Positions 1 through 41,205 of a stretch of 61,195 nt of DNA are shown piece after piece (within the stretch, counting starts at the first letter, position 1; each line of letters starts with the position of its first letter). Under the pieces are notes generated by a model, which was given only the letters and a program-made list of their open reading frames with translations, was not told where the DNA came from and did no database searches. This DNA is from Chloroflexota bacterium. Its GTDB lineage: Bacteria; Chloroflexota; Dehalococcoidia; SZUA-161. A program made the position numbers and the translations under genes. Location of the stretch: contig JAJYLC010000003.1 of assembly GCA_021787935.1 (NCBI GenBank), positions 1 to 61,195 of the forward strand, read 5' to 3'.

Positions 1-2
1 GA

Positions 3-797
3 CAGATGTCTACATCAGACCTGCTCCAGTGGACATTTCATGCTCCCTTCGGGCACATGTCTGAGGCAGGACGAGTCGCTATGATTGTGCGCCGATATGT
101 ACATGAGTTCGGTATCAACAGCGAGCAATTCGGCTGGGTCCCTGTAGTATGCAAAGAACACGGCGCTCAAAATCCCAATGGCATGTACTACAAGAAGCCA
201 ATTACTATCGAGAACTACCGGAAATCGGAGATGGTTGTGGAGCCTCTGCGAAGGCTGGATTACTACGAAGAGGCTGACGCGGCTGCTGCCCTAGTCGTTA
301 CTACCGCAGAAAGGGCAAAAGACCTCAGACAAAAAACAGTCTATGTGCTCGGAGCCGCTCAGAGCATGGTGCCTGAAACTGAAGAACAAAACTCGTATTA
401 TCGGCGGTCTATATCGGGTTTCCCTGAGATGGCGGAGGTGGGAAAGAAGATTTTCTCTATGGCCGGTGTTACCCCGAAGGATATAAATTGCGTGCAACTC
501 GATGATTCATATGGGCCTTTTGTTCCTATGCAGTTGGAGGAACTGGGGTTCTGCAAGCGGGGCGAAGGCGTGGACTTCTGCAATGGCGGCAGCCGTATCA
601 GGTTAGGCGGCGAGTTGCCCCTCAATACCTCCGGCGGCTCTCTCGGCGAGGGCCATTTATACGGTATGAACCACGTCATCGAAGCAGTACGCCAGATAAG
701 GGGCATATCAACGGCCCAGGTGAAGAATGCCAGGCTGGTGCTGGTTGCTTCAGGGGCAGGCAGTCCAGCCAGTGGTCTCATTCTAGGAGGTAAATAA
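3..797 (+). CDS. Thiolase-family protein, SCP-x/archaeal type (C-terminal part; 5' end lies outside the window)
   Basis: The frame is open to the window edge. C-terminal thiolase-like motifs are present (NTSGGSLGEGHLYGMNH). Its stop overlaps the next start (TAATG), which suggests translational coupling with the DUF35 gene. Confidence 0.75.
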   Translation, partial: QMSTSDLLQWTFHAPFGHMSEAGRVAMIVRRYVHEFGINSEQFGWVPVVCKEHGAQNPNGMYYKKPITIENYRKSEMVVEPLRRLDYYEEADAAAALVVTTAERAKDLRQKTVYVLGAAQSMVPETEEQNSYYRRSISGFPEMAEVGKKIFSMAGVTPKDINCVQLDDSYGPFVPMQLEELGFCKRGEGVDFCNGGSRIRLGGELPLNTSGGSLGEGHLYGMNHVIEAVRQIRGISTAQVKNARLVLVASGAGSPASGLILGGK

Positions 798-1216
798 TGA
801 GCATGGCTTATGATACGGAACATCCCATACCCATGCCCCCTATACTCTGGGATAACAAGGGCTTTTGGGATGGCGTTAAAAAGCATGAGCTGGTCTTTCA
901 GAGATGCAAACAGTGCGGCACCTGGCTTCATCCTCCAAGGCCTGCGTGTCCCAAATGCCGTTCCTTTGAAAAAGAGTGGGCACCCTCGACGGGGAAAGGT
1001 ACCGTGTATAGCTTTGTCACCTATCGAGAGTCGCCTCATCCCGCTTTCAAAGCGCCATATTCAGTGGTGCTGGTGGAGCTGGAGGAAGGAGTGCGGCTGG
1101 TCAGCAATATGGTTGATGTAAAGCCGGAGCAGATATTCATTGGCATGCCTGTGGAGGCGGTCTTCGATGACATATCCGAGGGCCTCACCCTCCCCAAGTT
1201 CAGAAAGGTGGGGTAG
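797..1216 (+). CDS. DUF35 family OB-fold / zinc-ribbon protein (thiolase partner)
   Basis: Contains a four-Cys ribbon (CKQCGTWLHPPRPACPKC) followed by an OB-fold-like C-terminus. It sits directly after a thiolase gene, the usual DUF35 context. Confidence 0.8.
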   Translation: MSMAYDTEHPIPMPPILWDNKGFWDGVKKHELVFQRCKQCGTWLHPPRPACPKCRSFEKEWAPSTGKGTVYSFVTYRESPHPAFKAPYSVVLVELEEGVRLVSNMVDVKPEQIFIGMPVEAVFDDISEGLTLPKFRKVG

Positions 1217-1217
1217 C

Positions 1218-2351
1218 ATGGATTTCGCCCTTAGTGAAGAGCAGGAGATGTTGAAGAAATCGGCGCGAGATTTTCTCAGCATTGAGTGTCCCAAAAAATT
1301 AGTGAAGGAGCTGGAGGCCGGGGAATCGGGTTACTCTCCCGAGCTGTGGCAGAAGATGGCCGGGCTGGGCTGGATGGGCCTGGCGTTGCCTGAGGAATAC
1401 GGCGGAGCCGGCCTAAGCCTGCTCGACATGGCGGTGCTGTTTGAGGAGTTTGGGCGTGCTGCCATGACTGAGCCCATGTTCAGTACTATAGCCTTCGGAG
1501 CGCTGCCGATTCTGCAATGGGGAACCGAGGAGCAGAAAAAAACATTCCTTCCCAAAGTGGCGGCCGGTAAGCTACTTTTGACCTTGGCGCTGGCAGAGCC
1601 GGGTGTAAACGAAGACCCCATGTTCATCACCACTCGCGCCATGACAAAGGACGATGGCTTCCTAATCCACGGCACCAAGCTTTTTGTTCCCTACGCACAC
1701 ATTGCAGATTATCTACTCGTGGTGGCAAGGACAAAGGGAGTTGCCGGCGATAAAATAGGTATCACCGTTTTCATAGTTGATAGAAAGTCTCAAGGCATTA
1801 GTATCGCCCCGCTGGCAACCATGGCCGCCGACAAGCAGTTCGAGGTAAATTTCGATAAGGTATATGTTCCGTCAAACAATATACTCGGAAGCCTACACAA
1901 CGGCTTGCCTTTAGTCAGAGAAACGCTTAAAAAGGCCACAGCAATACAGTGCGCCGAGATGGTAGGCATAGCACAGCAGGAACTGGAGATGACAGCCGAG
2001 CATACCAGGAATCGAATACAGTTCCAGCGCCCTCTCGGCACATTCCAGGCGGTGCAGCACAGCCTGGCCGATATGTTCATTGATGTAAATGGCGCTCGTT
2101 GGACAACGTACCAGGCGGCGTGGCGTCTGAGCGAGGGGCTACCTGCTGACCGTGAGGTAGCCATCGCCAAGGCATTTACCAATATCGCCTGCCAGCGAGT
2201 TGCCTTCACGGCCCAGCAACTGCACGGCGGCCTGGGCGTTGACAGAGACTACGACCTCCATTTCTATTTCCGTCGTGCCAAGGCCTTTGCCCTGACCCTG
2301 GGCAGCACACCGTTTCATTTGAAGACAATCGAGGCAGAAATAGGCAGTTAG
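1218..2351 (+). CDS. Acyl-CoA dehydrogenase
   Basis: The ATG at 1218 gives MDFALSEEQEMLKKSARDF, a typical ACAD N-terminus. The C-terminus has QLHGGLGVDRDYDLHFYFRRAK. The listed ORF start at 1140 overlaps the DUF35 gene and is not needed. Confidence 0.85.
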   Translation: MDFALSEEQEMLKKSARDFLSIECPKKLVKELEAGESGYSPELWQKMAGLGWMGLALPEEYGGAGLSLLDMAVLFEEFGRAAMTEPMFSTIAFGALPILQWGTEEQKKTFLPKVAAGKLLLTLALAEPGVNEDPMFITTRAMTKDDGFLIHGTKLFVPYAHIADYLLVVARTKGVAGDKIGITVFIVDRKSQGISIAPLATMAADKQFEVNFDKVYVPSNNILGSLHNGLPLVRETLKKATAIQCAEMVGIAQQELEMTAEHTRNRIQFQRPLGTFQAVQHSLADMFIDVNGARWTTYQAAWRLSEGLPADREVAIAKAFTNIACQRVAFTAQQLHGGLGVDRDYDLHFYFRRAKAFALTLGSTPFHLKTIEAEIGS

Positions 2352-2383
2352 AATCCGGAATACTATTCAAGGAAGGTGACAGA

Positions 2384-3187
2384 ATGTTAGTCGGAGGCTG
2401 TGATGTAGGCTCAGCCACAGGCAAGGCCGTGGTAATGAGAGATGGTGAGATCGTTTCCTATGAAATCATACCGTCCACAACCAAGCCCGAAGTAACCGCA
2501 CGGATGGTTATGGATAAGGCCGTTGAGAAGGCTGGCCTCTCATCAATCGCAGATCTTCAGTACATTGTTGGCACCGGATATGGTAGACTAAAGGTTCCCT
2601 TCGCCAACGAGAACATCTCTGAAATTACATGCCACGCTCGAGGTGCACAGTGGCTTTTGCCTACCGTTAGAACGGCAGTGGATATAGGAGGTCAGGACTG
2701 CAAGGTGATGTCGCTCGGAGCAAACGGTAAAGTGCTGGAATTCGTTATGAACGACCGGTGTGCTGCCGGTACAGGCAGGTTCTTTGAAGCCATGGCGAGG
2801 GTCCTCGACTGTGGACTTCAAGGGCTATCCGAGCTGTCACTCCAGGGCAAAAACCCGGCAACCATCTCAAGCCAGTGCAGCGTGTTCGCCGAGTCGGAGG
2901 TGGTGACCCTGGTCAATGAGGGCATGGAACTTGCCGACATAGTAGCAGGCCTCCATGCTTCGATAGCCAGCAGGCTGAACTCAATGGTGCGGAAGGTAGG
3001 GCTGGTTGAGGACGTTGTGCTTACGGGAGGATGTGCTAAAAACGACGGCCTCGTTAAAGCCCTCGAAGAGAAACTCGGCGTGACAGTCAAAAAGCTACCC
3101 CTAGATCCGCAGATCGCGGGGGCGATTGGAGCTGCGCTTATTGCTGCGGAGAAAGTAAGCAAGCAGACCATGAAGAGCCCCGCCTAG
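2384..3187 (+). CDS. BadF/BadG/BcrA/BcrD-type ATPase; activase of 2-hydroxyacyl-CoA dehydratase type (HgdC-like)
   Basis: Has an N-terminal GxDxGS motif (GCDVGSATGK) and the cluster-bridging Cys contexts NDRCAAGTGRFFE and SSQCSVFAESEVV. The length of 267 aa fits. Confidence 0.85.
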   Translation: MLVGGCDVGSATGKAVVMRDGEIVSYEIIPSTTKPEVTARMVMDKAVEKAGLSSIADLQYIVGTGYGRLKVPFANENISEITCHARGAQWLLPTVRTAVDIGGQDCKVMSLGANGKVLEFVMNDRCAAGTGRFFEAMARVLDCGLQGLSELSLQGKNPATISSQCSVFAESEVVTLVNEGMELADIVAGLHASIASRLNSMVRKVGLVEDVVLTGGCAKNDGLVKALEEKLGVTVKKLPLDPQIAGAIGAALIAAEKVSKQTMKSPA

Positions 3188-3258
3188 AAAGGGCATAGTG
3201 TAACGCTTAAACAGAAAAAACAACCCTTAAAACTGTTCCGGGAAAGGAGGTACAGCGA

Positions 3259-4407
3259 TTGGAAACACCTATAAAGTCCAAGGTATTCGAGCAATTTAAT
3301 GAAGCCACCAAAACGCTGCTTAATCCGGTGCTGCAGGATTGGAAGAAGCAGGGTGGCAAGATAATAGGGTACTTTTGCTCCACAGTCCCTGAGGAGCTAA
3401 TCACAGCCGCCGGGTTAACTTCGTTCCGAATGAGAGCGACAGGAAGCACAAGCACGGAGATGTCAGATGCATTTTTCAGCAGCATCAACTGTAGCTTTCC
3501 GCGCCACTGTTTCAACCTGGCGCTAACCGGCGAGTTCAAGTTTCTAGACGGGGTTGTCTGCGTCAACTCTTGCGACCATGTACGACGCATATACGACAAC
3601 TGGAAACGCTTTGTGCCCGATACGCAGTTTATCGAAGTAATGAGCCTTCCCCGCAAGACAGACCCTCCCCAGATTGCCTGGTACCGCGACGAGATTAATC
3701 TCCTTAGAGAGAAGCTTGAGAAACATTTTGGCGTCAAAATTAGCGACAAAACTCTGTGGAAGGCGATCAAGCTGCACAACGAGACACGGCGGCTGCAAAA
3801 GAAACTCTACGAGCTGAGAAAGAAGGACAAACCGCCGATCACAGGCTCCGAGACACTCGCTGTTATGGTCGCAGGCACTGCTATGCCCAAGGCGCAATAC
3901 AACGATATGCTGCGTGAGCTGTTGGATGAGCTAAAGGGAGTCGAGGGCCCGGGCGACCATAGGGCACGATTGATGCTCGTGGGAGGTATTCTCGATGATC
4001 CCGCCTACGTCAAGGTCATCGAGGATCAGGGCGGGCTTGTCGTTACCGATTCGCTTTGCTTCGGCACCAGGATCATGTGGGTCGAGGTCAATGAAAATAT
4101 TAAGGATCCTGCTGAAGCCCTGGCGAGATATTATGTGGCCGAGCGCCCTTCGTGCCCGCGTTTTTATGGCGAGCATGACAATCGGTCCAATTACGTCATT
4201 AATATGTGCCGCGAGTTCAAATGTGATGGGATCATCGGAGAAAGGCTGATGTTCTGTGACTCCTGGCTCGTGGAGCACTACATGCTTGGGCAGGACCTTA
4301 AAGCTGCCGGGATTCCGATGCTGAAACTGGATAGAGAGTACATTACGGGCGGCGTAGGTCAACTCAGAACCAGGGCCCAGGCATTCCTAGAAACGATTGG
4401 GAGGTAG
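3259..4407 (+). CDS. 2-hydroxyacyl-CoA dehydratase / benzoyl-CoA reductase B/C-family subunit
   Basis: TTG start lies 8 nt after AAGGAGG. It has HgdA/B-family length and Cys-containing segments (INCSFPRHC, VNSCDH, SLCFGTR), and directly follows the activase gene. Confidence 0.7.
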   Translation: METPIKSKVFEQFNEATKTLLNPVLQDWKKQGGKIIGYFCSTVPEELITAAGLTSFRMRATGSTSTEMSDAFFSSINCSFPRHCFNLALTGEFKFLDGVVCVNSCDHVRRIYDNWKRFVPDTQFIEVMSLPRKTDPPQIAWYRDEINLLREKLEKHFGVKISDKTLWKAIKLHNETRRLQKKLYELRKKDKPPITGSETLAVMVAGTAMPKAQYNDMLRELLDELKGVEGPGDHRARLMLVGGILDDPAYVKVIEDQGGLVVTDSLCFGTRIMWVEVNENIKDPAEALARYYVAERPSCPRFYGEHDNRSNYVINMCREFKCDGIIGERLMFCDSWLVEHYMLGQDLKAAGIPMLKLDREYITGGVGQLRTRAQAFLETIGR

Positions 4408-4410
4408 AAG

Positions 4411-5715
4411 ATGGCTTTGGTAGATAAACACCCCGAGATGGTACGTTATATTTCAGAGCTGGAGTGGTTCAAGTTCCTCCGTGAACAGACCGTGGCTCTT
4501 ATCGAAATCCCTGAAATGCAGTTACAGGTAAAGACGCTTGACTCTCTACTGAGCATGTATGGCAGGATAATAGACGCGGTGGAGAATAACAAGCCGTTCC
4601 TTGCCAGCTACTACTGCCTGGCACCGGAGCTGTACACGGCCATGGACTTGCCTTATTACATGGTCATGCAGACTCCGTTCCTGGCTTCCTCGGTACCTTA
4701 TCTTCTAAAAGATATCGATGCCGCTGAAGAGATGGGGCTGGGGAATGACCTCTGCACGGCCATCAGGTTGTCCATATACTATGTTGAAGCCAACCTCTCG
4801 CCCCTGCCAACCTGCGCCCTCAACCTGCTTTACCCCTGCGATGGTGCTCCACTGCTTCACGAGGTGATAAAGCGTAACCAACGCTGGCGCAATATCCCGA
4901 TGTTCGCCCCCGACCCGCCGTACTATATGGATGAGCGGAGCCTGAACTACTTTGCCGGCGAGCTAAGGAATATGGTAAAGTTCATTGAGAAGCATACCCA
5001 CAGGAAGCTGGACCTGGACAAGCTGAAAGAGACCATCGAATGCTCTAATCAAATGTTCAGGCTGTGGGACGAATACAATCAACTGCGGCGCAATGTACCG
5101 AGCCCTCATGGTTGGGGCATAGGCGGTCCGCAGTGCTTCTCTCAAGCCTGGGTGTACCAGGCGGGAACCCCTGAGGGCGTCGATTGGTTCAAGAAGCTGG
5201 TTGAGATAGCCGAGCTAAACGTGAAGGCTGGCGTAGGGCCGGTGCCTCAGGAGAAGATAAGACTGTTCTGGTTCGACCTTCTGCCGTTCGGCTGGGTCTT
5301 CGAGTTTCTGCCTTGGCTGGAGTCAGAGTGGGGAGCAGTCATGGTCATGGACATGTTCGCTAATTTCCCCTACACCATGATTGATACCTCAAGTGAGGAA
5401 AAGATGTGGTTGGGCCTCGCCAAGAGGAATCTATTCGACTCACCGATGGTGAGGCAGGCGCGAGGTGTGGCCGACAACTTCGCCAACGATATCAGGCGAA
5501 TAGTGAAGGACTACAAAATCGACGTGGTAATCTGGCCCGGGCACATGGGCCACAAAGACGGTTCGGCGACTGTGGGCATAATGAGAGAGACCTGCCGCGA
5601 CCTCAATGTGCCGTTTATTCACCTGGGCCTCGACCTGTTCGACAAAAGATACTCGACACCGGACCAGATAAAGGACAAAATTTCGCAGTTCTTCAGAGCT
5701 ATGGGGCTGGGTTAA
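4411..5715 (+). CDS. 2-hydroxyacyl-CoA dehydratase family subunit (second subunit)
   Basis: Starts 3 nt after the previous stop. Paired arrangement and a size of 434 aa are typical of the second HgdAB-type subunit. Confidence 0.65.
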   Translation: MALVDKHPEMVRYISELEWFKFLREQTVALIEIPEMQLQVKTLDSLLSMYGRIIDAVENNKPFLASYYCLAPELYTAMDLPYYMVMQTPFLASSVPYLLKDIDAAEEMGLGNDLCTAIRLSIYYVEANLSPLPTCALNLLYPCDGAPLLHEVIKRNQRWRNIPMFAPDPPYYMDERSLNYFAGELRNMVKFIEKHTHRKLDLDKLKETIECSNQMFRLWDEYNQLRRNVPSPHGWGIGGPQCFSQAWVYQAGTPEGVDWFKKLVEIAELNVKAGVGPVPQEKIRLFWFDLLPFGWVFEFLPWLESEWGAVMVMDMFANFPYTMIDTSSEEKMWLGLAKRNLFDSPMVRQARGVADNFANDIRRIVKDYKIDVVIWPGHMGHKDGSATVGIMRETCRDLNVPFIHLGLDLFDKRYSTPDQIKDKISQFFRAMGLG

Positions 5716-5737
5716 ATAGCAGGGAACCAGTCAATCA

Positions 5738-5776
5738 CCCTGAGCGTAGCGGCCGCTACGCTCAGGGTTTCGGTTT
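5738..5776 (+). terminator. Rho-independent terminator-like hairpin after the dehydratase genes
   Basis: A perfect 30-nt palindrome (ccctgagcgtagcgg|ccgctacgctcaggg, centred on GCGGCCGC) is followed by tttcggttt. Confidence 0.6.
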
Positions 5777-5817
5777 CACCAACACCGTGACTATAGCGGC
5801 GAAAAGGAACCCATTTT

Positions 5818-6603
5818 ATGGCTGTCTTCGATGTCTACATAAAAAAAGTAGCTGAATATATCGAAGCAATGCAGGCCAGCGGCAGGCAGGTCAGGACTTT
5901 CGACTGCCCCAGTGGTCCGGAAAGATTGCTGAACGGGCTGCCTGTCAGGGTTGGCCCCGGAGCAGGCTCGGGAATAGTCCTGCGCGGAGATACCTTTGCC
6001 GAACTGGGCAGTCCTGAGGCCGGTTCTTGTGCCTTTCCGCTCTGGACTAACAATACAAGCCTGGTCAAAGACTGCAGGATTACCCTTATTGGCCCTGATA
6101 TCCTTGAATCTAAAGGTGCAAGCCTGCCCTTCGGTCAAATTATTATGGCGGCGGGGGAAAAGCTCAGCGAAAAAGAGCACTCTGTCTTCGATGAAAGTCA
6201 ATACATCTCAGACCAGATTGAAGGCTACATGGTAAAGAGTACACCTGGACGTATGTGGACGAGGATAAGCAACGACGCTGCAGAGAGGGGCTTTGGCTTC
6301 GAAGCACTGGGAAAGGCACTCATGGCCATCTATAAGTCCCATGCACCCCATGTAGAGGCGATGGAGGTTGTTTTCGTTACCTCGGGCAAAGAAGACGTGG
6401 GACGGCTGGACGAAATCGCTGAGCAGGTAAAGAAGATCAGCAAGGATATTGTCAGAGAGACCTGGCTGGCCAGGGGCTACGACATCCTCGAATGCACCCT
6501 GGGCTGGGATTGCGGGTCTTGCCCGGATAAAGCTGTTTGCGATGATATCAAGACAGTGCTGAAAGTGCGCAAGAAGAAGGCCGTGGATACTGAGACTGCT
6601 TAG
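5818..6603 (+). CDS. Stand-alone acetyl-CoA synthase (AcsB/CdhC)-like domain protein, truncated before the A-cluster region
   Basis: By eye it aligns with the central AcsB / N-terminal CdhC segment (ITLIGPDI..LPFGQI..WTRISNDAAERGFGFEALG..VVFVT). It ends with ECTLGWDCGSCPDKAVC (Cx5Cx2Cx5C). Confidence 0.6.
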   Translation: MAVFDVYIKKVAEYIEAMQASGRQVRTFDCPSGPERLLNGLPVRVGPGAGSGIVLRGDTFAELGSPEAGSCAFPLWTNNTSLVKDCRITLIGPDILESKGASLPFGQIIMAAGEKLSEKEHSVFDESQYISDQIEGYMVKSTPGRMWTRISNDAAERGFGFEALGKALMAIYKSHAPHVEAMEVVFVTSGKEDVGRLDEIAEQVKKISKDIVRETWLARGYDILECTLGWDCGSCPDKAVCDDIKTVLKVRKKKAVDTETA

Positions 6604-6623
6604 AGTTCTGGACTTAGGATTTT

Positions 6624-7415
6624 GTGATGACTGCTCCTGGTATTTCTAAAAAGAGACTTCTAGCCGTCTGCGGCAAGGGAGGCACTGGAAAGACAGCGCT
6701 CACTGCCATGATGACCAGAGTCCTGCTGGACAGCAGCAACTCCGGCAAGCTGCTGCTCATCGATGCCGACCCGGCTATGGGTCTACCCAACGCCCTTGGC
6801 TTAAAAGTCAAGCGGACCATGGGCCAGGTTCGCGAGGAAATCATCAAGACCGCAAGAGGCAGCGACAAGGAGAAAAAGGCTAAGCTGGCCAGTATGCTTG
6901 ACTATATGGTCATGGAGGCCCTTTACGAAACAGATAGCTTCTCGTTACTGGCAATGGGACGCACCGAGACACAAGGCTGTTTTTGTCCGGTCAATAACCT
7001 TCTGCGGGATGCCATAGAAACCCTATCCAGTAATTTCGACACCATCGTTATCGACGGCGAAGCCGGTGTGGAACAAATCAACAGACAGGTCATGCGCCGC
7101 GTAGATACCCTGATTATTGTCAGCGATGCTACATCCAGAGGAGTTCAAACCGCCGCCCTGGTAAAGAAAATGGTGCGAGACGACAAGGTAATACAATGCG
7201 AAAAAATAGGTTTAATCTTCAACAGGGTTCGAGGCAATCAGGAGCTATTGAAACAAGCTGCGCAGGAGATAGGGTTGGATGTCTTTGGTTACGTCCCCCA
7301 GGACGAAAATATAGCCTCCTATGACCTGGTGGGTAAGTCCATCCTGGAACTCCCCGTTACTTCACCCGGACTCGCGGCGATACGTCACATCGTGACCGAC
7401 CACATCCTCAAGTAA
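6624..7415 (+). CDS. cooC: CooC-type nickel-insertion ATPase (MinD/ParA superfamily)
   Basis: Has the deviant Walker A CGKGGTGKT and the CooC-signature CxC metal site (TQGCFCPVNNL). Confidence 0.75.
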   Translation: MMTAPGISKKRLLAVCGKGGTGKTALTAMMTRVLLDSSNSGKLLLIDADPAMGLPNALGLKVKRTMGQVREEIIKTARGSDKEKKAKLASMLDYMVMEALYETDSFSLLAMGRTETQGCFCPVNNLLRDAIETLSSNFDTIVIDGEAGVEQINRQVMRRVDTLIIVSDATSRGVQTAALVKKMVRDDKVIQCEKIGLIFNRVRGNQELLKQAAQEIGLDVFGYVPQDENIASYDLVGKSILELPVTSPGLAAIRHIVTDHILK

Positions 7416-7421
7416 TACCTT

Positions 7422-8888
7422 CTAAGAGTCCAAATACATCTTGCTCTCAGCTACAAACCTGTGGTAATCTGCGAATCGGTTCACAGCCCGGCAAGCCCTG
7501 CGCAGCGAATTGTAGGCTGTGATTCCGGCCTCTCTGAGCTGCCTCGCATATGTTTCAGTATCATGAATCTGCCCCTCCTCCGATAAAGCAACAATCATCG
7601 GCTTGTGCTGAGACATCGGATTAGAGGAGTTAGAGATACGTTTGTGCAACTCGGTTAACACATTAGCCGCCGGGCCCGCAACGAACTCAGCGCCCAGGTG
7701 TAACATGACCATATCTATTTGAGGATCTGCTGCAAGCAATTCATAGGCCCGGTGCAGAGGCGTAATATCCACCACTACACTCGGCACGTCTATCGGGTTT
7801 GCCACCCCCTGATTTACCAGAGAGATAAACTTAAGCAGACCATTTCTTGTATGTTCCGAGAGAGCTGGTAATATAATACCTTCCTCGGCACAGATGTCTC
7901 CGGTGGCTACGCTGCTGCCTCCCCCGACTGCCAGTACGGCTGCCCGTTTATTAGGCGATGGCTCCAAATGGAGGAATGTCATGGTTACCTCGGCCATCTC
8001 TTCAATCGAGTGTACTGCTATGGCTCCCGTCTGTTTGAAGAAGGCCTTCCAGATTTGTTTATCTCCCGCTAGAGAACTGGTGTGTGATGCTGCAGCCCTG
8101 GCACCTGCACTCGTCAGGCCGCCCTTCCAAACAATGACTGGTTTTACCGGATTTATTTGTCTCACAAGCTCCGTAAGCCGCCTGCCATCTTTGACTCCCT
8201 CAAGATACAGGCAGATGATCTGAGTCTCCGGGTCTTTGGCCAGGTATTCAAGGAAGTCAGGGGCATCCAGCAATAGCGCATTACCGTGGCTTATCACCTT
8301 GCTGAAACCTATGCCGAGTTGCGCACCGCGTAACAGGAATATACGTGCGTGGCCCCCGCTCTGGGATACAAAAGCCACAGGCCCACGGACAGGCGGCGTG
8401 TCAGCATGCATCTGCATATTTATTGAGGGTATCTGGAAACCCATGCAGTTCGGGCCGATAACCCGGAGGTTTCCCTTCAAAGCTATCTCACGTATCTCAT
8501 CCTCCAGCTTCTTTCCCTCCGCTTGACCGGTTTCGCCAAAGCCGGAGGTGCATATCTGTACATTAAGCGCCTTGGCTGAAACGCAGTCTCTCACTACCTG
8601 AGGGACTGCGGCGGGAGGTACCGTAATTATGACCAGATCTAGATGCTCAGGGATAGAGATAACACTCGGGTATACTTTGACCCCCTCAATCTCGTTAGCT
8701 TTGGGGTTAACAGGATATACAGACCCCTGGAAACCTGCCTGTCGGAGGATACGAAGAATGCCCGCCCCTGTATACCCCGGGTGCTTGGAGTCATCGTTTC
8801 TGGAAACGCCCACGATGGCGACTGTTCTGGGAGGAAAGCCCTCCCCGAAATTCCAACTGTGTTTCACTAGTCCTACTGTTTTGCTCAC
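7422..8888 (-). CDS. ADP-forming acyl-CoA synthetase, alpha-type polypeptide (CoA-binding plus CoA-ligase domains)
   Basis: N-terminus has PRTVAIVGVSRN...YPVNP (CoA-binding). A succinyl-CoA-synthetase-like flavodoxin domain is present (SQSGG). No ATP-grasp part is fused or adjacent. Confidence 0.7.
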   Translation of the reverse strand: MSKTVGLVKHSWNFGEGFPPRTVAIVGVSRNDDSKHPGYTGAGILRILRQAGFQGSVYPVNPKANEIEGVKVYPSVISIPEHLDLVIITVPPAAVPQVVRDCVSAKALNVQICTSGFGETGQAEGKKLEDEIREIALKGNLRVIGPNCMGFQIPSINMQMHADTPPVRGPVAFVSQSGGHARIFLLRGAQLGIGFSKVISHGNALLLDAPDFLEYLAKDPETQIICLYLEGVKDGRRLTELVRQINPVKPVIVWKGGLTSAGARAAASHTSSLAGDKQIWKAFFKQTGAIAVHSIEEMAEVTMTFLHLEPSPNKRAAVLAVGGGSSVATGDICAEEGIILPALSEHTRNGLLKFISLVNQGVANPIDVPSVVVDITPLHRAYELLAADPQIDMVMLHLGAEFVAGPAANVLTELHKRISNSSNPMSQHKPMIVALSEEGQIHDTETYARQLREAGITAYNSLRRACRAVNRFADYHRFVAESKMYLDS

Positions 8889-9248
8889 TAATTTTTCAGT
8901 ATACCAACTAAATCGTTATTTGTCATTCATCGTATATGGCTTTGTCTTATTATTGAAATTAAATATGGTGAGGCTATTCCAGCTTCAAAAATACCTGAAA
9001 GTAATGTCCGAACCATGATTTTAGCAGAAACAGAAATTGGAATAATAACCATTTGGTCCGATATTTCGCCGGAGACTCCAACGTAAGCCGCATCGCAGAG
9101 AAGGTACTTTGATGAAGTTCTGTCAACACCAAAGTAACTTTGTCGCTGTTACTGCCGTAGGATTGATTCCATTCGATTTCGTAGCATAATTGGTTCAAGA
9201 GTGATCGAGAACACGTCCTATTCAAAACCTGCTTCGATTTGATTTAAA

Positions 9249-11114
9249 ATGACAGATTTCAAACCTATCGCGAGAAAGATTTTAACATACATTTCTGCAG
9301 GTTTAATTGTCGCCCCTCTGTATGTAATCGCGCTTTGGGCTCTCCGCTACTCTACAAACAGCTGGTTCGATCCCTGGGGCATCATCACTATAGTCTTTAT
9401 GGTATTTATTTTTCCCTCGGTTATGGTGACATTAAGGGCCCCTATACAAAAAAAAGTAGATAGAATTCTCTATGGTTGGAGATTGCCTTACCGGGAAACA
9501 ATGCTGAATCTCCCTACCAGGTTGAGAAATATTCTCAGTGTCAGTGACCTTGCTGAAGAATTGTTGCGCCCGATACCCAGAGCCCTGAATACTCCACATG
9601 TAAGTCTCCTTCTCCCCCGTAACGGGAGCTTCGTTTCGCAGTTCCATGACCAGCTTATTGGAGTGACGCCGCCGTCGCCTTTGGAACTCCACAAGGACAG
9701 CCCGATTGTGAAGTGGCTTAGAGAAAATAACGGGCTCCTCTTTCCCCACACCCTGGATACAGCACCTGAGTTCGTGCGGATTGCCCAGGCTGAGAGGAAC
9801 GCAATCAAGGATTGTGACATCGGACTGCTTGTACTAATGCAGCATAAAAGCAACACGATCGGAATCCTCGCCCTGGGGCCAAAACAGAGCGGCCCGTACT
9901 CCGGGGAAGACATCACCCTGCTCACAAAGGTGAGTCAGGAATTGGCCGTGACTATGGCAAACGCTCAACTGTTTAACATCACCAGAGATAGAGTGCATAC
10001 AGATGACTTAACAGGCTTGCTCAGCCACGGGTATTTTCATCAGCGCACAGACGAGGAGATATCACGTTGTTCCCGTTTTGGCAACATATTTTCAGTGCTC
10101 TTCTTGGACGTCGACCTATTCAAATCCTACAACGATGCCTTCGGCCATCTGGCAGGCGACGACATCCTGAGGGAGATAACACGTCATATCAAAAATTCCA
10201 TCAGGTCGATAGACATACCCTGCCGCTATGGCGGAGATGAGTTTGCGGTCATTCTGCCCGAGTCGCCCCTGGACGATGCCTACAATGTCGGTGAGAGGAT
10301 CCGGGAAAAAGTAGAATCCGAGATGGACATCAAAGGTATAGCAATAACATGCAGCATAGGAGTAGCATCGTGGCCCACCAGCGGAGTTACCAAAGAAGCA
10401 CTCCTTATGGCTGCGGATAGCGCCCTGTACCGGAGCAAGCAAGCAGGGCGAAATCAGGTATCCCTGGCCTCTGCCACGATATCCCTCCAACAATCCGATT
10501 TCGATAAAGAGGAGCAGATTCTAAACGCCGTTCATGCTCTGGCAGCCACTGTTGATGCCAAGGACCATTACACTTACGGACACTCCAAGAAGGCGGCAGA
10601 ATATGCCGGGCAAATTGCCCAGGCACTTGGCTATTCCAATGACAAGGTAGCCATGCTTAAAGCAGCAGCGTTATTGCATGATATCGGTAAGATTCGAGTT
10701 CCCGATAATATTCTTTTGAAGCCGGGCTCTCTTACCGACAGCGAATGGACGGCTATACGGGAACATCCCAAGTTCGGTGTGGCAATACTCAAGCATATCA
10801 AGAGCCTGGGCTCATGCTTGCCAGTCATTCAACATCATCACGAACACTTTGACGGAAAGGGTTATCCTGCCGGACTGATTGGTGAAAACATTCCGCTGGA
10901 AGCCCGTATTCTGGCAATCGCTGATGCCTATGATGCTATGACGTCGCCGCGTCCTTACCGACCCAATGCATTACATCACCAGGAAGCCCTGGAGGAAATT
11001 GTGCGCTGTGCCGGGTCTTATTTCGATCCTGAAATAGTGAGAGTATTTGCTGCGACGTGGGAGCCGGCAAATTACCGCACAATGATTAATTCCGCGGCCG
11101 GTAAAAGTGGCTAA
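9249..11114 (+). CDS. Membrane-anchored GAF-GGDEF-HD-GYP c-di-GMP signalling protein
   Basis: Two N-terminal TM helices. GGDEF site is RYGGDEFAV with FLDVDLFKSYND. HD-GYP part has LHDIGK and HHHEHFDGKGYP. Confidence 0.85.
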   Translation: MTDFKPIARKILTYISAGLIVAPLYVIALWALRYSTNSWFDPWGIITIVFMVFIFPSVMVTLRAPIQKKVDRILYGWRLPYRETMLNLPTRLRNILSVSDLAEELLRPIPRALNTPHVSLLLPRNGSFVSQFHDQLIGVTPPSPLELHKDSPIVKWLRENNGLLFPHTLDTAPEFVRIAQAERNAIKDCDIGLLVLMQHKSNTIGILALGPKQSGPYSGEDITLLTKVSQELAVTMANAQLFNITRDRVHTDDLTGLLSHGYFHQRTDEEISRCSRFGNIFSVLFLDVDLFKSYNDAFGHLAGDDILREITRHIKNSIRSIDIPCRYGGDEFAVILPESPLDDAYNVGERIREKVESEMDIKGIAITCSIGVASWPTSGVTKEALLMAADSALYRSKQAGRNQVSLASATISLQQSDFDKEEQILNAVHALAATVDAKDHYTYGHSKKAAEYAGQIAQALGYSNDKVAMLKAAALLHDIGKIRVPDNILLKPGSLTDSEWTAIREHPKFGVAILKHIKSLGSCLPVIQHHHEHFDGKGYPAGLIGENIPLEARILAIADAYDAMTSPRPYRPNALHHQEALEEIVRCAGSYFDPEIVRVFAATWEPANYRTMINSAAGKSG

Positions 11115-11482
11115 ACGCCACCAGTTTTGCCTGCACAGTATATGATAATTCAGTTGCAAGACATATTCTGGAATAACATCCGGCACATTGGCACCTGAGT
11201 TTCCCAGTGTCGCCAGTATTTAGATAGTACTTTTTTCTAGCGAGCTCAAAACTAAAGGGCTATTGTAGAAGCCAGAGATTGCAATGAAAGTACTATTGTA
11301 CCTACGTTGAACATACGCTAAATTTTTATTGTAAGGAAATTATCGCCGTTTAATAGGTTATAGTACAGCAAGTTGGTACTATCACATTATTAGGATTTCA
11401 GTAACAAATTTCGAAAGCTGTACGAGGACTCGTTAATCTTGAATACGACTGCCTATCAAACTGTTAAGGAACTTGAGGTTCG

Positions 11483-12247
11483 ATGCGTAGCATAAAAGTA
11501 ATGATTGTGAGCAGCAATTCATTCGCCCGATCTGGAATCGAGCAGATGTTATCCGGACAAAATGCGCACATACTGGATATCGTAGAGTGCGATTTAGACC
11601 AGGAGGGGGCAAACGTAATCACACAAATCTCGAACTGCTTGCCAGATATCGTGTTGTTGGACCAGGGCTATCATCTTTCGCTAGGGATTCAGTTGACCAG
11701 AAAAATCACAAAGACGTTTAGAGGCACTAAGGTAGTGATTATCAGCAACAGGAATGCAGAAGATGATGCAGAGCTATTTCAGGTCATCAAGAGCGGAGCA
11801 GCGGCGTACCTTAACGCTGAACGGTGCACTCCCGATTTACTAGTTCAAACTGTAAACCGATGCGCCGATGGTGAATATCCTATTAATGATAGTGTAGCAA
11901 ATAGGCCCAAGCTAAGCTGGCGGGTACTTAGAGAGTTCCAGGACTTCTCCTTGAACAAAAAATATGTAGAGAATGCTTTGGAGTCTCTAACCTCCAAAGA
12001 ACTCCAGATATTGAAGCTCATCTGCGAGGGCAACTCGAATAAGCAAATCGGGGATATATTAGGCACCAGTGAACAGACAATCAAAAATCAGGTCAGTTCG
12101 ATTTTGCGCAAATTGAATGCAAACGATCGGGCACACGCTGTGTTCATAGCGGCACGCGATGGCTGGATATACATTAAGAACGATGATAAGGCAAACGAGC
12201 GTGATTCTCATTCAGGCCAAATGGTTAATATTGAATCGTCAACTTAG
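11483..12247 (+). CDS. LuxR/FixJ-type regulator with an atypical receiver-like N-terminal domain
   Basis: C-terminal HTH is LTSKELQILKLICEGNSNKQIGDILGTSEQTIKNQVSSILRKL. The N-terminal REC-like fold lacks the usual acidic DD pair (MIVSSNS). Confidence 0.75.
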   Translation: MRSIKVMIVSSNSFARSGIEQMLSGQNAHILDIVECDLDQEGANVITQISNCLPDIVLLDQGYHLSLGIQLTRKITKTFRGTKVVIISNRNAEDDAELFQVIKSGAAAYLNAERCTPDLLVQTVNRCADGEYPINDSVANRPKLSWRVLREFQDFSLNKKYVENALESLTSKELQILKLICEGNSNKQIGDILGTSEQTIKNQVSSILRKLNANDRAHAVFIAARDGWIYIKNDDKANERDSHSGQMVNIESST

Positions 12248-18703: not shown

Positions 18704-19490
18704 CTACCGATCCTGGTGTGGGGGTCGAGGTGGCAGCGGTCGCTGGCCCGCAGCATAGCGGCGCAGCGCTTCGGCCATGTCAGGGTCCGAGAGGCTGGCC
18801 CGATGAAGCCGCCGCTCAAGCCTAAGGCCTTCAGGCAGGGGTAGTGACATGCCCTGGTAAACGCTCTGCCGGTCATTGCGGAGGCTGGCCTGAGGGTACG
18901 CAGAGATAGCCTCGGCTAGCTCCAGGGCGCGTGCCAGCGCCTGCCCCGGTGACACAACCTCCTGTACAAGTCCGATGCGGAACGCGTGAGCGGCGTCGAT
19001 AAGCACGCCCGACTCAATCAGATAGAGGGCGTTGCCCAAGCCGACGATTCTGGGCAACCGTTGGGTGCCCCCATCTACGAGGGGAACACCCCAGCGGCGG
19101 TTGAGCACGCCGAACTGCGCGTTGCGGGATGCGACACGAAAGTCACACCAGCAGGCCAATTCCAGACCGCCAGCCAGGCAGTAACCGTTCACGGCCGCTA
19201 TGGTCGGCTTGTGGAGGTTAGTGATGTGGCTGATACCCATCGGGCCCCGACTTCTTAGCGCCCCGGCGAGCCGCAAGGCCACCGATGTCCTTAAGGTCAG
19301 CCCCGGCGCAGAAAGAGACCTCGCCAGAGCCAGTGAGGATGAGTACGTCGAGGCTATCATCCTGACGGAATGCCTCGACCGACTTGAAAAGCAGCCCCGC
19401 GGTCTCTGCGTCAACAGCGTTGCGAACCTCAGGGCGGTTGATGGTGACGATGAAGGCCCGACCCTTGCGTTTAGATCTAATCTTGGGCAT
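18704..19490 (-). pseudogene. Enoyl-CoA hydratase/crotonase, split by a frameshift near 19239-19250
   Basis: The N-terminus (ORF 19218..19490: FIVTINRPEVRNAV...FCAGADLK) and the remainder (other frame: KPTIAAVNGYCLAGGLELACWCDFRVA...) join at a ggggccc run. The patch is markedly GC-rich. Confidence 0.65.
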
Positions 19491-19597
19491 AGCGCACCTG
19501 TTTGGGCGCCTCTCACTAATCCATTGTACCTGTTGGTCCGCTCTCTATTCTATGCTCGTGGGTGCTTCTTAACAAGGGGCGAGAGGTTTGGTCCGGG

Positions 19598-35477: not shown

Positions 35478-36314
35478 TTGCCTGAGTTGCCCGAAGTCGA
35501 GACCATTGTAAATGACCTGCGGCCCGGTCTGAAAGGCCGCAGTTTCACCGATATAACCATCCTCTGGCCCCGAATGGTGCTCCGGCCCTCGGCCGAAGAG
35601 TTGCGACAGCGACTACCCGGCCAGACTATCCAGGATATAGGCCGGAGGGGTAAATATCTTATCTTCCGTCTTGCCAGCGGCGAAGTACTGATACTACATC
35701 TCAGGATGACCGGCTCGCTGCTGCTCAAGCAAAAAGGCGAGCCACTCGCTAAGAATAGTTCCTATATAAGAGCGGTTTTCGGCCTGGACGATGGCATGGA
35801 GCTGTTATTTAACGACCGGCGTAAGCTTGGTACGGTCTCGCTGGTAAAGGACGAAAAAGAGGTAATCGGTAAGCTCGGCCCCGAGCCGCTCGGTGCCAGC
35901 TTCACCGCAAAGGAGCTGGCAGAACGGCTGAGCAAGCACAAAGCGCCTATCAAGGCAGTTCTCTGCGACCAGGAGGTCATCGCCGGCATCGGCAACATGT
36001 ATGCTGATGAGGCGCTGTTCTTCGCCAATATCCATCCTCTGAGGGCAGCCAACAGCCTTTCCCCTGAAGAAATAGAGAGGCTGTATCGAGCTATACAAAA
36101 GGTGCTTTCCAAAGCCATCGGCAACGGCGGCGCCAGCATCAGCGACTACCGCCGTCCCACAGGTGAAAAGGGAAGTCAACAGAATGATTTTTATGTAGCA
36201 CATAGGGGTGGCCAAACCTGCAAGGTTTGTGCCACCCCTATCGAACGCATTCCAGTGCGCAACCGGGGCACCTATTTCTGCCCCAGGTGTCAGCGCCCTC
36301 CTACTGGTTCTTGA
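35478..36314 (+). CDS. mutM: Formamidopyrimidine-DNA glycosylase
   Basis: (M)PELPEVE N-terminus and a C-terminal zinc finger CKVCATPIERIPVRNRGTYFCPRCQ. Confidence 0.9.
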   Translation: MPELPEVETIVNDLRPGLKGRSFTDITILWPRMVLRPSAEELRQRLPGQTIQDIGRRGKYLIFRLASGEVLILHLRMTGSLLLKQKGEPLAKNSSYIRAVFGLDDGMELLFNDRRKLGTVSLVKDEKEVIGKLGPEPLGASFTAKELAERLSKHKAPIKAVLCDQEVIAGIGNMYADEALFFANIHPLRAANSLSPEEIERLYRAIQKVLSKAIGNGGASISDYRRPTGEKGSQQNDFYVAHRGGQTCKVCATPIERIPVRNRGTYFCPRCQRPPTGS

Positions 36315-41198: not shown

Positions 41199-41205
41199 TA
41201 TATAT

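Follow-up and report, generated by a model that had tools for sequence, protein, structure and literature searches.

An acetyl-CoA synthase-derived protein and a CooC-type ATPase accompany a benzoyl-CoA reductase-like module in Dehalococcoidia and other anaerobic bacteria

Nickel is inserted into acetyl-CoA synthase (ACS; AcsB/CdhC, EC 2.3.1.169) by the ATPase AcsF, a paralogue of CooC. ACS itself binds acetyl-CoA mainly through its A2 domain, where the adenine is stacked on Trp405 and the diphosphate is held by a patch of lysine and arginine residues (bioRxiv 10.1101/2024.08.05.606187). A separate group of systems, the BCR/HAD/DCCP superfamily, includes class I benzoyl-CoA reductase (BCR) of the Bzd type, composed of BzdNOPQ and the ferredoxin BzdM (PDB 8S02, 9G87), and the homodimeric DCCP, which has its own reductase, DCCP-R (6ENO, 7YYL). 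It also includes the 2-hydroxyacyl-CoA dehydratases (HADs; HgdAB or HadBC with the activase HgdC or HadI), which carry one [4Fe-4S] cluster per subunit. To our knowledge, neither the canonical BzdNO and HAD systems nor DCCP have CdhC-like or CooC-like partners.

The window considered here, a stretch of 61,195 nucleotides from a Chloroflexota bacterium of the class Dehalococcoidia (GCA_021787935.1, contig JAJYLC010000003.1), encodes relatives of both groups side by side. The CdhC-like protein (5818..6603, forward strand; 261 aa from an ATG start) contains all the motifs quoted in the initial annotation, which had seen homology only to the central segment of AcsB, or the N-terminal segment of CdhC. 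This assignment is borne out by profile, sequence and fold matches. The Pfam CdhC model (PF03598) matches residues 42–190 significantly, with an E-value of 1.2e-17 and 64.6 bits (cut-off 24). NCBIfam CdhC/AcsB models are matched only over model segments 4–171 of ~460, or 297–466 of ~705–710, and the scores of 60–75 bits miss the whole-protein equivalog level (cut-offs 356–809). Sequence matches in the PDB are confined to CdhC residues 5–166 and to residues 319–487 of the Moorella (Mt) ACS. The AlphaFold model of the protein alone (pLDDT 92.5) recovers the ACS/CdhC fold, and a Foldseek search of the PDB with this model matched only ACS/CdhC chains (E ~1e-13, ~180 columns, rmsd 2.3). Its pLDDT is lowest at the C-terminal Cys motif, as expected of a cofactor loop. 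The protein consists of a family-specific N-terminus (aa 1–35), an ACS A2-like domain (aa about 36–215), a long helix and a C-terminal Cys loop. It is an ACS derivative in which A2 and the beginning of the A-cluster cubane loop survive, while A1, the remainder of A3 and the Ni-binding Cys-Gly-Cys are gone.

The presumed Fe-S site is C226-x5-C232-x2-C235-x5-C241 (6493..6540, forward strand). C232, C235 and C241, which form the Cx2Cx5C core, are invariant in all 123 aligned family sequences. C226 is present in 97 of the 123 and is missing in a subgroup with two activases, whose members have only three of the cysteines; in these proteins, the cluster may have an open site or share its ligation with a partner. 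The initial annotation held that the protein stops before the A-cluster cysteines and ends in a Cys motif of its own, a view that needs correction in light of the alignment of the family profile with Mt ACS. This alignment passes from A2 into the cubane loop without large gaps, and sets the motif collinearly against the opening portion of that loop: C226, C232 and C241 correspond to C506, C509 and C518, respectively, and C235 lies at the position of Phe512. The Cys motif is thus probably homologous to the A-cluster cubane loop rather than an unrelated motif. Of the four cubane cysteines of the A-cluster (Mt C506, C509, C518 and C528), only the equivalents of C509 and C518 are invariant in the family. 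The 261-aa protein ends 20 residues past C241, so that the fourth cubane cysteine (Mt C528) and the body of A3 are missing. The Ni-binding Cys595-Gly-Cys597 (Mt) has no counterpart, as the 261-aa sequence contains neither a CGC motif nor a region aligned with it. The acetyl-transfer arginine and histidine of A2 (Arg383 and His386 in C. autoethanogenum) are not conserved either: the window protein has E126 and Y129, and arginine and histidine are found at these positions in 31/123 and 17/123 family sequences.

The determinants of CoA binding are better preserved. A CoA-site-like patch identified in the family alignment (R/K140, R/K145, W147, R149, K/R152 and K/R157; 6235..6288, forward strand) includes W147, conserved in 119 of the 123 sequences, R149 (120/123) and a basic residue at position 140 (122/123). 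The family and ACS have a W-x-R-x-S motif in common, the tryptophan of which corresponds to the adenine-stacking Trp405 of C. autoethanogenum ACS, an equivalence derived from a numbering offset and not from a direct alignment.

The CooC-type P-loop ATPase (6624..7415, forward strand; 263 aa from the GTG at 6624, with the ATG at 6627, giving 262 aa, the likelier start) begins 20 nt past the stop codon of the CdhC-like ORF. Its P-loop, GKGGTGKT (a deviant Walker A, aa 17–24), and its CxC motif, GCFCP (C119-x-C121), are as described in the initial annotation, and the pairing of the two genes is conserved far beyond the window. The best match in a PDB sequence search is CooC1 (3KJE; E 7.9e-16, 62 bits, compared with 22–32 bits for other proteins), in which QCYCR is aligned with GCFCP, placing the CxC at the same position. 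GKGGxGKT and GC[FY]C are found in 52 of 52 partner genes, where C119 and C121 are invariant. A fold search with the model of the ATPase (pLDDT 78) did not separate MinD, CooC1, NifH and FleN (all TM ~0.55–0.6); the Fe proteins of nitrogenase and of methylthio-alkane reductase ranked about level with CooC1 and MinD. Its description as a nickel chaperone goes beyond its assignment as CooC-type: the nickel role, taken from the family name only, is countered by the absence of the ACS Ni ligands, by the absent or non-conserved acetyl-transfer Arg/His and by the lack of a recurring Ni transporter in the loci surveyed. The only conserved candidate client of the ATPase is the CdhC-like protein, which is without the ACS Ni ligands.

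Compared with ACS and AcsF, the pair therefore has an A2 domain homologous by sequence and fold, the adenine-stacking Trp, the basic patch, a collinear cubane Cys loop and a co-encoded CooC-family P-loop/CxC ATPase. The CdhC-like protein differs from ACS in the loss of A1, the A3 body, the Cys-Gly-Cys Ni site, Mt C528 and the conserved acetyl-transfer Arg/His, in the new cysteine at the Phe512 position, and in its location within BCR-like operons with no CODH or corrinoid gene nearby.

The neighbouring reductase module comprises an activase and two subunits of the HGD-D fold, all on the forward strand. The HgdC/BzdQ-type ATP-dependent activase is a single gene (2384..3187; Pfam BcrAD_BadFG, PF01869, E 8.7e-61) that scores 260 bits with TIGR00241, above the cut-off of 125. 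The BzdN-like subunit (3259..4407; Pfam HGD-D, PF06050, E 5.6e-97) has BzdN as its best PDB match (8s02_B, E 1e-49). Its residues C40/78/105/267/299/333 align residue for residue with BzdN Cys36/73/100/263/293/327, the six ligands of the [8Fe-9S] double cubane (ligand list from PMC11971306), and these cysteines are kept in 36–40 of 40 orthologues. The catalytic BzdO/HadB-like subunit (4411..5715; HGD-D E 1.1e-43) is more divergent, with weak PDB matches to HadB and BzdO (E ~1e-6). In a weak alignment with BzdO, C115 corresponds to Cys95, the invariant C143 is one residue off Cys128, and the catalytic His131 finds no match. Position 381, in an HxG[H/C] motif, is a histidine in the window and in 29 of 40 orthologues and a cysteine in the other 11. 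The full BzdO set, three Cys ligands together with the catalytic His131/Glu65, is not present in the window protein. All three proteins miss the NCBIfam equivalog level (BzdN 171 vs 454 bits, BzdO 31 vs 449, BzdQ 200 vs 380). Judged by these sequence comparisons, the module is a member of the BCR/HAD/DCCP superfamily and not a benzoyl-CoA reductase orthologue.

The module shares with Bzd-type BCR the six [8Fe-9S] cysteines of the BzdN-like subunit, the BzdO-like partner, an ASKHA ATPase (encoded by one gene here and, in a subgroup, by two, like BzdPQ) and, in the window, an acyl-CoA catabolic context. It differs in scoring far below the equivalog cut-offs, in the third ligand of the O-like cluster, which is mostly His, in the unmatched His131, and in having CdhC-like and CooC-like genes instead of a ferredoxin gene. 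The HGD-D fold, the six-Cys double-cubane signature of the N-like subunit and ATP-driven electron injection are also found in DCCP with DCCP-R, which can likewise stand alone without CoA genes, as does the module of an Eggerthellaceae relative (L064); DCCP, however, is a homodimer, whereas the module has a heterodimer-type pair. The HADs belong to the same families (PF06050, PF01869) and have a single activase gene as well, but the module has the double-cubane Cys set in place of one [4Fe-4S] per subunit, no 2-hydroxyacid pathway genes and the additional cassette.

A 102-nt gap separates the catalytic genes from the CdhC-like gene. It folds at -39.7 kcal/mol and contains a perfect 14-bp hairpin followed by TTTCGGTTTCA (5737..5768, forward strand), detected in a terminator-like scan. 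In the same gap of five relatives (L005, L007, L008, L010 and L011), the outer stem is conserved, with differing inner stem and loop. Rfam searches of positions 1–12000 detected no riboswitches; the region ahead of the cassette, in particular, has no NiCo riboswitch. The only match was to a snoRNA and is due to chance.

Upstream of the module, an SCP-x-type thiolase (cut by the window edge), a DUF35/ChsH2-type OB protein and an acyl-CoA dehydrogenase were identified with Pfam (6..2351, forward strand). The same order is seen in the close relatives L005–L010; this context is lineage-specific and lies outside the conserved five-gene core. Convergent to the pair is an ADP-forming acyl-CoA synthetase alpha-like protein (7422..8888, reverse strand; Pfam CoA_binding_2 and Succ_CoA_lig), which recurs beside the pair only in Dehalococcoidia relatives (L001, L005, L007–L010 and L013). 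No member of the CODH, ACS or corrinoid-protein families was detected by Pfam among the window ORFs scanned, in line with the initial annotation, which reported no CooS/AcsA, corrinoid protein or full AcsB. Nine ORFs within the first 9 kb were included in the scan, as were, past 14 kb, 30 of the 46 listed ORFs that reach 150 aa or more; most of the rest of these 46 overlap an ORF scanned on the opposite strand. ORFs at 9.2–13.4 kb and shorter ones lay outside the scan. Genes for CODH and the corrinoid Fe-S protein were also absent from the called genes within +/-10 kb in L001–L006 and L064–L065.

To explore how widely this arrangement occurs, 57 species genomes from at least 10 phyla were surveyed. 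Loci were chosen only by a CdhC-like peptide pattern and are, as a result, unbiased with respect to their neighbours. The pattern was built from 16 closer sequences and is narrow, so that distant family members are under-sampled, and the 57 loci were screened with window-derived queries only. In 52 of 57 loci, the same strand carries a CooC-like gene close by, usually directly after the CdhC-like gene. Among the 52 loci informative on this point, 50 have adjacent genes for BzdN/BzdO-like (HGD-D) proteins, in most cases together with an HgdC-type activase, and an activase gene is found near the CdhC-like gene in 48 of the 57 genomes. The link to an ATP-driven dehydratase/reductase module, first noted as an adjacency in the window, is thus the main conserved association of the pair. 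Pairwise identities of the five proteins co-vary (r = 0.86–0.91), the pattern that joint inheritance of cassette and reductase would produce. Eggerthella sp. YY7918 is a cultured carrier, with the CdhC-like protein BAK45479.1/WP_013980723.1. In L064, the five genes form a stand-alone operon with a LuxR-type regulator gene preceding it and no CoA-metabolism gene adjoining; its three downstream genes, encoding the activase, the CdhC-like protein and the CooC-like protein, have overlapping stops and starts. Some loci (L002, L015 and L036) have two catalytic pairs and a single set of activase, CdhC-like and CooC-like genes, an arrangement more in keeping with an accessory used in common than with a stoichiometric subunit. 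The pair is found without nearby HGD-D genes in L001, from a complete Dehalococcoidia genome, and in L059.

No small ferredoxin gene was found near any module in the 57 loci; a ferredoxin motif is present nearby in seven, always within an ORF of 215–399 aa. Clustering and Pfam analysis of the unlabelled neighbours revealed no recurrent sixth partner, Ni transporter or other Ni gene. A tblastn search against plasmids gave no match. The surroundings of the loci vary and include beta-oxidation genes, malic enzyme, an OYE-type reductase, a GMC oxidoreductase and Fer4 proteins; at the exceptional loci L059, L035, L047, L050 and L025, the neighbours are uninformative. We found no description of an association of a CdhC-like/CooC pair with BCR-like genes in the full-text literature searched, the scope of which did not extend to subscription journals; the initial annotation had likewise regarded the arrangement as not a described system.

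The term fragment, used in the initial annotation, does not fit the CdhC-like protein. The family comprises 515 clusters (50% identity) at E<=1e-3, and among the best 150 of these, proteins are 85–310 aa long, most of them 240–290 aa, with no full-length ACS (0/150). Its depth and fixed length, together with its own invariant C-terminal motif and N-terminus, argue against a gene fragment, and the family size and conservation rule out split-gene, pseudogene and chance-ORF readings. On the evidence of these homologues, the protein is a member of an independent, deep family of fixed length (about 240–290 aa), in which certain residues are invariant. A split or decaying acsB, with its other half and cooS elsewhere and the pair serving an ordinary CODH/ACS, is scarcely credible and already contradicted by the data. 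Database annotations do give both genes CODH/ACS names, and the close relative L005 has genes for methylene-THF reductase and formate-dehydrogenase-like proteins ~1.5–10 kb downstream, so that a Wood-Ljungdahl pathway may exist in some hosts. However, such a remnant would not account for the short length and the invariant ends seen throughout the family or for synteny that runs with BCR-like genes, and neither the scanned window ORFs nor the called genes of L001–L006 and L064–L065 include an A3-domain, CODH or corrinoid gene.

The reading we prefer, with a probability of roughly 45%, is that the CdhC-like and CooC-type proteins form a two-gene accessory cassette of an ATP-driven, class-I-BCR-like reductase that works outside the Wood-Ljungdahl pathway, the CdhC-like protein being an Fe-S, CoA/nucleotide-binding auxiliary subunit or electron carrier. 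Its Cx2Cx5C(+C) loop would bind an Fe-S cluster, most likely [4Fe-4S], while Trp147 and the basic patch would hold CoA or an acyl-CoA by its ADP moiety, a role that A2 has in ACS. A dimer of the CooC-like ATPase could, at the expense of ATP, insert the metal site of the CdhC-like protein or make it complete, in the manner of AcsF with ACS. The holo-protein would then act as the dedicated low-potential electron carrier or auxiliary subunit of the reductase, replacing the ferredoxin encoded in canonical bcr/bzd clusters, and it may clamp the substrate at its exposed CoA nucleotide. Several observations count against this proposal. It is not obvious why an electron carrier should have a domain for CoA binding or a P-loop maturase to itself; ordinary [4Fe-4S] proteins owe their maturation to ISC/SUF. 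No such partners are known for the canonical BzdNO, HAD and DCCP systems. The pairs of L001 and L059 without nearby HGD-D genes, the three-Cys subgroup, and the L064 operon without a CoA-metabolism neighbour also speak against it.

The pair could instead be an assembly or repair system, a possible, if unlikely, role in which the CdhC-like protein is a scaffold or carrier with a labile cubane on its exposed C-terminal loop, and the ATPase, in the SIMIBI class with NifH and Mrp/Nbp35, drives the delivery or reductive fusion of cubanes at the [8Fe-9S] site of the BzdN-like subunit or at the BzdO-like site. CooC-type proteins are maturation factors rather than enzyme subunits, consistent with the P-loop and CxC conserved in 52/52 partner genes, and NifH is required for the ATP-dependent formation of the P-cluster from two cubanes. 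One cassette could serve two catalytic pairs, the strong hairpin between the catalytic genes and the cassette in the clade of the window is compatible with lower expression of an accessory, and the variants with only three cysteines hint at a cluster that is labile or can be passed on. However, recombinant BzdNO reportedly had both of its clusters, and the passages of PMC11971306 consulted mention no dedicated factor; moreover, a role in assembly leaves the near-invariant CoA-site tryptophan and basic patch unexplained, as well as the pairs located away from HGD-D genes (L001, L059). Persistence without HGD-D neighbours fits a bond of client and chaperone between the two proteins themselves, as proposed in a nickel-enzyme reading. 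The CdhC-like protein would then be a minimal A-cluster into which the ATPase inserts Ni beside the cubane at the Cys509 equivalent, with the invariant Cys235 (Phe512 position) as the second Ni ligand; ATP-boosted electrons from the BCR-type module would allow Ni(I) to be reached, and the substrate of the site would be the thioester of a CoA ester bound to the A2-like domain. The characterised clients of CooC/AcsF are all Ni-Fe-S sites (Gregg et al. 2016, as reported in a citing paper), the invariant cysteines are precisely the equivalents of C509 and C518 and a new one beside the would-be Ni position, and the CoA-binding determinants are kept. We nevertheless hold a nickel enzyme to be rather unlikely: the protein has neither the Cys-Gly-Cys motif, which in ACS ligates both Ni ions, nor the fourth cubane cysteine, conservation is lacking at Arg383 and His386, the loci show no recurring Ni transporter or other Ni gene, and cubane ligation would consume all three or four cysteines.

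A specific version, in which a new Ni-[Fe-S] cofactor (a stripped A-cluster with a bridge through the Cys509 equivalent, plus Cys235) is installed by the CooC/AcsF-like ATPase, reduced by the BCR-type module to a reactive low-valent form and used to break or form C-S or C-C bonds in CoA thioesters bound to the A2-like domain, appears distinctly improbable. Highly improbable, in our opinion, is a NifH-like function of the ATPase, which would be an electron-transfer ATPase and not a metallochaperone. An Fe-S cluster would span its dimer, held between the two CxC motifs, and the ATP-energised electrons passed to or from the CdhC-like Fe-S protein would constitute a second activation module of the reductase. 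The about equal rank of Fe proteins with CooC1 and MinD in the structure search is in its favour, as is the location of the CxC of CooC1 at the dimer interface, where NifH holds its cluster. Sequence comparison, however, puts CooC1 well ahead of the other solved proteins (62 bits vs 22–32), the module already has an ASKHA-type activase (48/57 loci), and we know of no description of a CxC-bridged [4Fe-4S] cluster.

Both genes currently carry CODH/ACS labels, 'CO dehydrogenase/acetyl-CoA synthase beta subunit' for the CdhC-like protein and 'CO dehydrogenase maturation factor' for the CooC-like protein. These labels can create false calls of Wood-Ljungdahl or CO metabolism in MAGs of Chloroflexota and other phyla. 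A minimal soluble protein of ~260 aa, with A2, the cubane loop and an ATPase of its own, would be a model in which client recognition by CooC/AcsF could become testable. If the reading of low-valent Ni were true, organometallic nickel chemistry of the ACS type would occur outside C1 metabolism, from subsurface Dehalococcoidia to gut Eggerthella. The LuxR-type regulator preceding the L064 operon may, speculatively, point to a diet- or host-derived substrate.

The pair is a conserved companion, and perhaps an accessory, of ATP-driven BCR-like enzymes in many anaerobic phyla. If our preferred reading is true, parts of ACS and of CooC/AcsF have a function beyond the Wood-Ljungdahl pathway, in partnership with the BCR/HAD/DCCP superfamily, a link noted by neither field in the literature searched, and they would define a distinct and widespread subclass of ATP-driven low-potential reductases.

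The gene for the CdhC-like protein (5818-6603, +; 261 aa), which carries all the motifs quoted in the initial annotation, and the ORF for a CooC-type ATPase (6624-7415, +), which starts 20 nt past it, are both present as described there. The mechanically called start of the latter is GTG 6624; ATG 6627, located 10 nt after AGGA, is the likelier start (262 aa), since the closest relatives are mostly 262 aa long. Upstream on the same strand, Pfam identifies an SCP-x-type thiolase truncated by the window edge, a DUF35-type protein, an acyl-CoA dehydrogenase, a BcrAD/HgdC-type ATPase (activase, 2384-3187) and two HGD-D-fold proteins, BzdN-like (3259-4407) and BzdO-like (4411-5715). A convergent ADP-forming acyl-CoA-synthetase-like gene (7422-8888, −; Pfam) ends 6 nt beyond the CooC-like stop. 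The reported lack of CODH/ACS genes was borne out. Pfam scans of nine ORFs within the first 9 kb, plus 30 of the 46 that were listed beyond 14 kb with a length of at least 150 aa, turned up no CODH, ACS or corrinoid-protein family; the omitted ORFs are mostly antisense overlaps of scanned ones, together with those at 9.2-13.4 kb.

Between the BzdO-like and CdhC-like genes lies a perfect, GC-rich 14-bp hairpin with a T-rich tail behind it (5737-5768, +). In the same gap of close Dehalococcoidia loci (L005, L007, L008, L010 and L011), the outer stem is kept while the inner stem and loop vary; the hairpin is missing from distant modules, whose genes overlap. Its role may be that of an intercistronic attenuator or of an mRNA-stability element, which would keep cassette expression lower. 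Unusual beta-oxidation-type genes are abundant elsewhere in the window, including two tandem pairs (38446-43981, +), each encoding a ∼475-aa KAS-III-like/DUF35-fusion protein followed by an SCP-x-type thiolase, enoyl-CoA hydratases (18704-19516 and 36301-37077) and an aldehyde:ferredoxin oxidoreductase (23180-25096). A low-GC island (44000-50600; 0.40-0.44 versus about 0.52 elsewhere), with an rve/DDE transposase (45869-46930, −), an N6/N4 DNA methylase (47047-48501, +), an IS1-like transposase (48506-49342, −) and a P63C-domain protein (49516-50568, +), is probably an insertion of mobile or foreign DNA.

To place the pair in context, one genome per species was scanned with a CdhC-like peptide pattern as the sole criterion, yielding 57 loci. 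These come from Dehalococcoidia and other Chloroflexota, Thermodesulfobacteriota and Syntrophales, Myxococcota, Binatia, Krumholzibacteriia, Acidobacteria, Gammaproteobacteria, Actinomycetota (including gut Coriobacteriales) and Spirochaetota. The ORFs were called in this analysis, and their labels come from phmmer comparisons with the window proteins; gene calls made independently, for which Pfam hits were precomputed, were concordant. In 52/57 loci the same strand carries a CooC-like gene nearby, usually as the next gene, and an activase gene is found in 48/57. HGD-D genes adjoin the CdhC-like gene in 50 of the 52 loci that could be judged (those with an HGD-D gene in view or no less than 3 kb of sequence upstream). 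The pair occurs without HGD-D genes within 10 kb in a complete Dehalococcoidia genome (L001) and in L059, and none is present in the 3.3 kb available upstream in locus L035. Identities of the five proteins, compared pairwise, co-vary (r = 0.86-0.91), and no sixth gene recurs among the neighbours in the loci surveyed. Some loci contain two catalytic pairs yet a single activase/CdhC-like/CooC-like set. In an Eggerthellaceae relative (L064), all five genes are packed into one operon behind a LuxR-type regulator, and stops overlap starts among the activase, CdhC-like and CooC-like genes. Eggerthella sp. YY7918, whose CdhC-like protein (BAK45479.1) is labelled 'hypothetical protein', is a cultured carrier. 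With a probability above 0.9, we assign the pair to BCR-like reductases, as an accessory, and not to CODH/ACS.

In Dehalococcoidia (L001-L004, L018 and the window, 7422-8888, −), a malic enzyme and/or ADP-forming acyl-CoA-synthetase alpha-like gene repeatedly follows the pair. Such genes also follow it in L001, which lacks the HGD-D genes; lineage synteny and a functional link are both possible. In a close relative (L005/L009, 12445-20283, −), the region 1.5-10 kb downstream of the cassette encodes a methylene-THF reductase, a DUF5981 protein, an NADH-dehydrogenase/HdrA-like flavoprotein and a formate-dehydrogenase-like molybdoenzyme, and some hosts may therefore carry Wood-Ljungdahl methyl-branch genes.

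The closest relative of the first HGD-D protein is BzdN (E 1e-49). Its C40, C78, C105, C267, C299 and C333 align exactly with the six cysteine ligands of the BzdN [8Fe-9S] double cubane, as listed in PMC11971306, and are conserved across modules. The second is a distant BzdO/HadB relative with two invariant cysteines, in which the catalytic His131 of BzdO is unmatched. Its third ligand position, residue 381 (nt 5551-5553), is His (HxGH) in 29/40 modules, including that of the window, and Cys (HxGC) in the other 11/40 (orthologues in L007-L063). A cluster held by two Cys and a His, with an open site, would be unusual for the HAD/BCR superfamily. Compared with BzdNO, the reductase has the superfamily features, including the double-cubane signature, but its scores all fall far under the NCBIfam equivalog cut-offs for Bzd proteins; the module is therefore a BCR/DCCP-type ATP-driven reductase rather than benzoyl-CoA reductase itself. 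Canonical bcr/bzd clusters encode a ferredoxin; no small ferredoxin gene was found near any module in the 57 loci.

The CdhC-like protein has significant homology to Pfam CdhC (PF03598; E 1.2e-17, residues 42-190). NCBIfam CdhC/AcsB models score 60-75 bits (cut-offs 356-809) and align only the segment of the ACS middle domain (A2), and PDB sequence matches span residues 5-166 of CdhC and 319-487 of Moorella ACS. A confident AlphaFold model of the protein alone (pLDDT 92.5; input, a 123-sequence family alignment) matched only ACS/CdhC chains in Foldseek (about 180 columns, rmsd 2.3). The family profile aligns further than the single sequence, from A2 through a ∼35-residue helix to the start of the A-cluster cubane loop, with small gaps only. 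C226, C232 and C241 correspond to Moorella C506, C509 (the bridging Cys to the proximal Ni) and C518, and C235 occupies the site where ACS has its conserved Phe512. Missing altogether are the fourth cubane Cys (C528), the remaining A3 domain and the Ni-binding Cys-Gly-Cys. A short Cys-rich stretch could be favoured by chance, but the identical spacing from the A2 end argues for homology. Because the profile continues collinearly, the protein is best described, on sequence grounds, as A2 plus cubane loop rather than A2 with an unrelated tail. The initial annotation was thus right about the A2-only match, but the Cys motif, which it considered the protein's own, aligns with the cubane loop.

This is a family in its own right. 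A word-indexed search gave 542 matches, the best 120 of which are 246-282 aa long; when 1.84 billion cluster representatives were searched exhaustively, 515 clusters reached E<=1e-3 (323 at E<=1e-10), and none of the best 150 of the 515 exceeds 310 aa. NCBIfam has no model for it. The 261-aa protein is one of its members, not a gene fragment. G64, G92, G136, C232, C235 and C241 are invariant in 123 diverse members, E62, L63, W147 and R149 are each present in >95%, position 140 is Arg/Lys in 122/123, and positions 145, 152 and 157 are mostly basic. C226, present in about 80%, is missing from a Cx2Cx5C-only subgroup (L053, L055, L056, L058, L059, L060 and L063), found mostly at the subgroup of loci with two activase genes, as in BzdPQ; the three cysteines suggest that the cluster has an open site or that a partner completes it. 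A split acsB is contradicted by the family depth, the lengths (<=310 aa in the best 150) and the family's own conserved residues, and we give it almost no credence.

In the crystal structure of C. autoethanogenum CODH/ACS with acetyl-CoA, the ligand rests mainly on A2, where Trp405 stacks on the adenine and a Lys/Arg patch faces the diphosphate; Arg383 and His386 are proposed acetyl-transfer residues (bioRxiv 10.1101/2024.08.05.606187). The family Trp, equated with Trp405 by numbering offset, lies in a W-x-R-x-S motif common to ACS, while the Arg383/His386 positions are unconserved, suggesting that nucleotide-binding determinants are retained and those for acetyl transfer and Ni are lost. Compared with acetyl-CoA synthase, the CdhC-like protein keeps A2 features only and lacks the A3 domain, the Ni site, the catalytic Arg/His, above-cut-off scores and a CODH context.

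The best solved relative of the partner ATPase by sequence is CooC1 (E 7.9e-16, CxC motif aligned), with FleN and MinD next at about half its score, and GKGGxGKT and GC[FY]C occur in 52/52 partner genes from other genomes. By structure, a model of the ATPase (pLDDT 78) does not separate CooC from MinD or NifH. Source annotations call it 'CO dehydrogenase maturation factor'. It resembles CooC in sequence and motifs, but its client is neither CODH nor ACS.

CX2CX5C spacing ligates [4Fe-4S] in WhiB-like proteins and AddB/Cas4 nucleases. Given this spacing and its location at the ACS cubane-binding site, the Cx2Cx5C(+C) loop could ligate an Fe-S cluster. Trp147 and the basic patch would hold the ADP part of CoA or acyl-CoA, an ATP-using CooC-like dimer would mature the Cys-loop site, as AcsF does for ACS, and the holo-protein would work with the reductase, either as its dedicated electron carrier or as an auxiliary subunit. 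In BzdNO, CoA kinks past the diphosphate at the channel entrance (PMC11971306); its adenosine end is therefore presumably outside the channel, where a protein whose Trp binds adenine could hold it in place. This combined mechanism is the favoured reading, at slightly less than even odds.

Nickel is the crux among the readings. Every known client of CooC/AcsF is a Ni-Fe-S site, and the Ni-bridging position is among the invariant cysteines of the family; however, the Ni ligands of ACS have been lost and the surveyed loci show no recurrent Ni-related gene nearby. We consider a catalytic, Ni-containing mini-A-cluster doubtful. Slightly less doubtful, though still unlikely, is that the pair assembles or repairs clusters of the reductase. 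A NifH-like electron-transfer role of the ATPase appears improbable.

No description of the association of CdhC-like and CooC-like proteins with such a reductase was found in the full-text literature searched, whose coverage excludes most subscription journals. We regard the system as a reductase of the BCR/DCCP type that has acquired two accessory components, without described precedent, from the ACS machinery.
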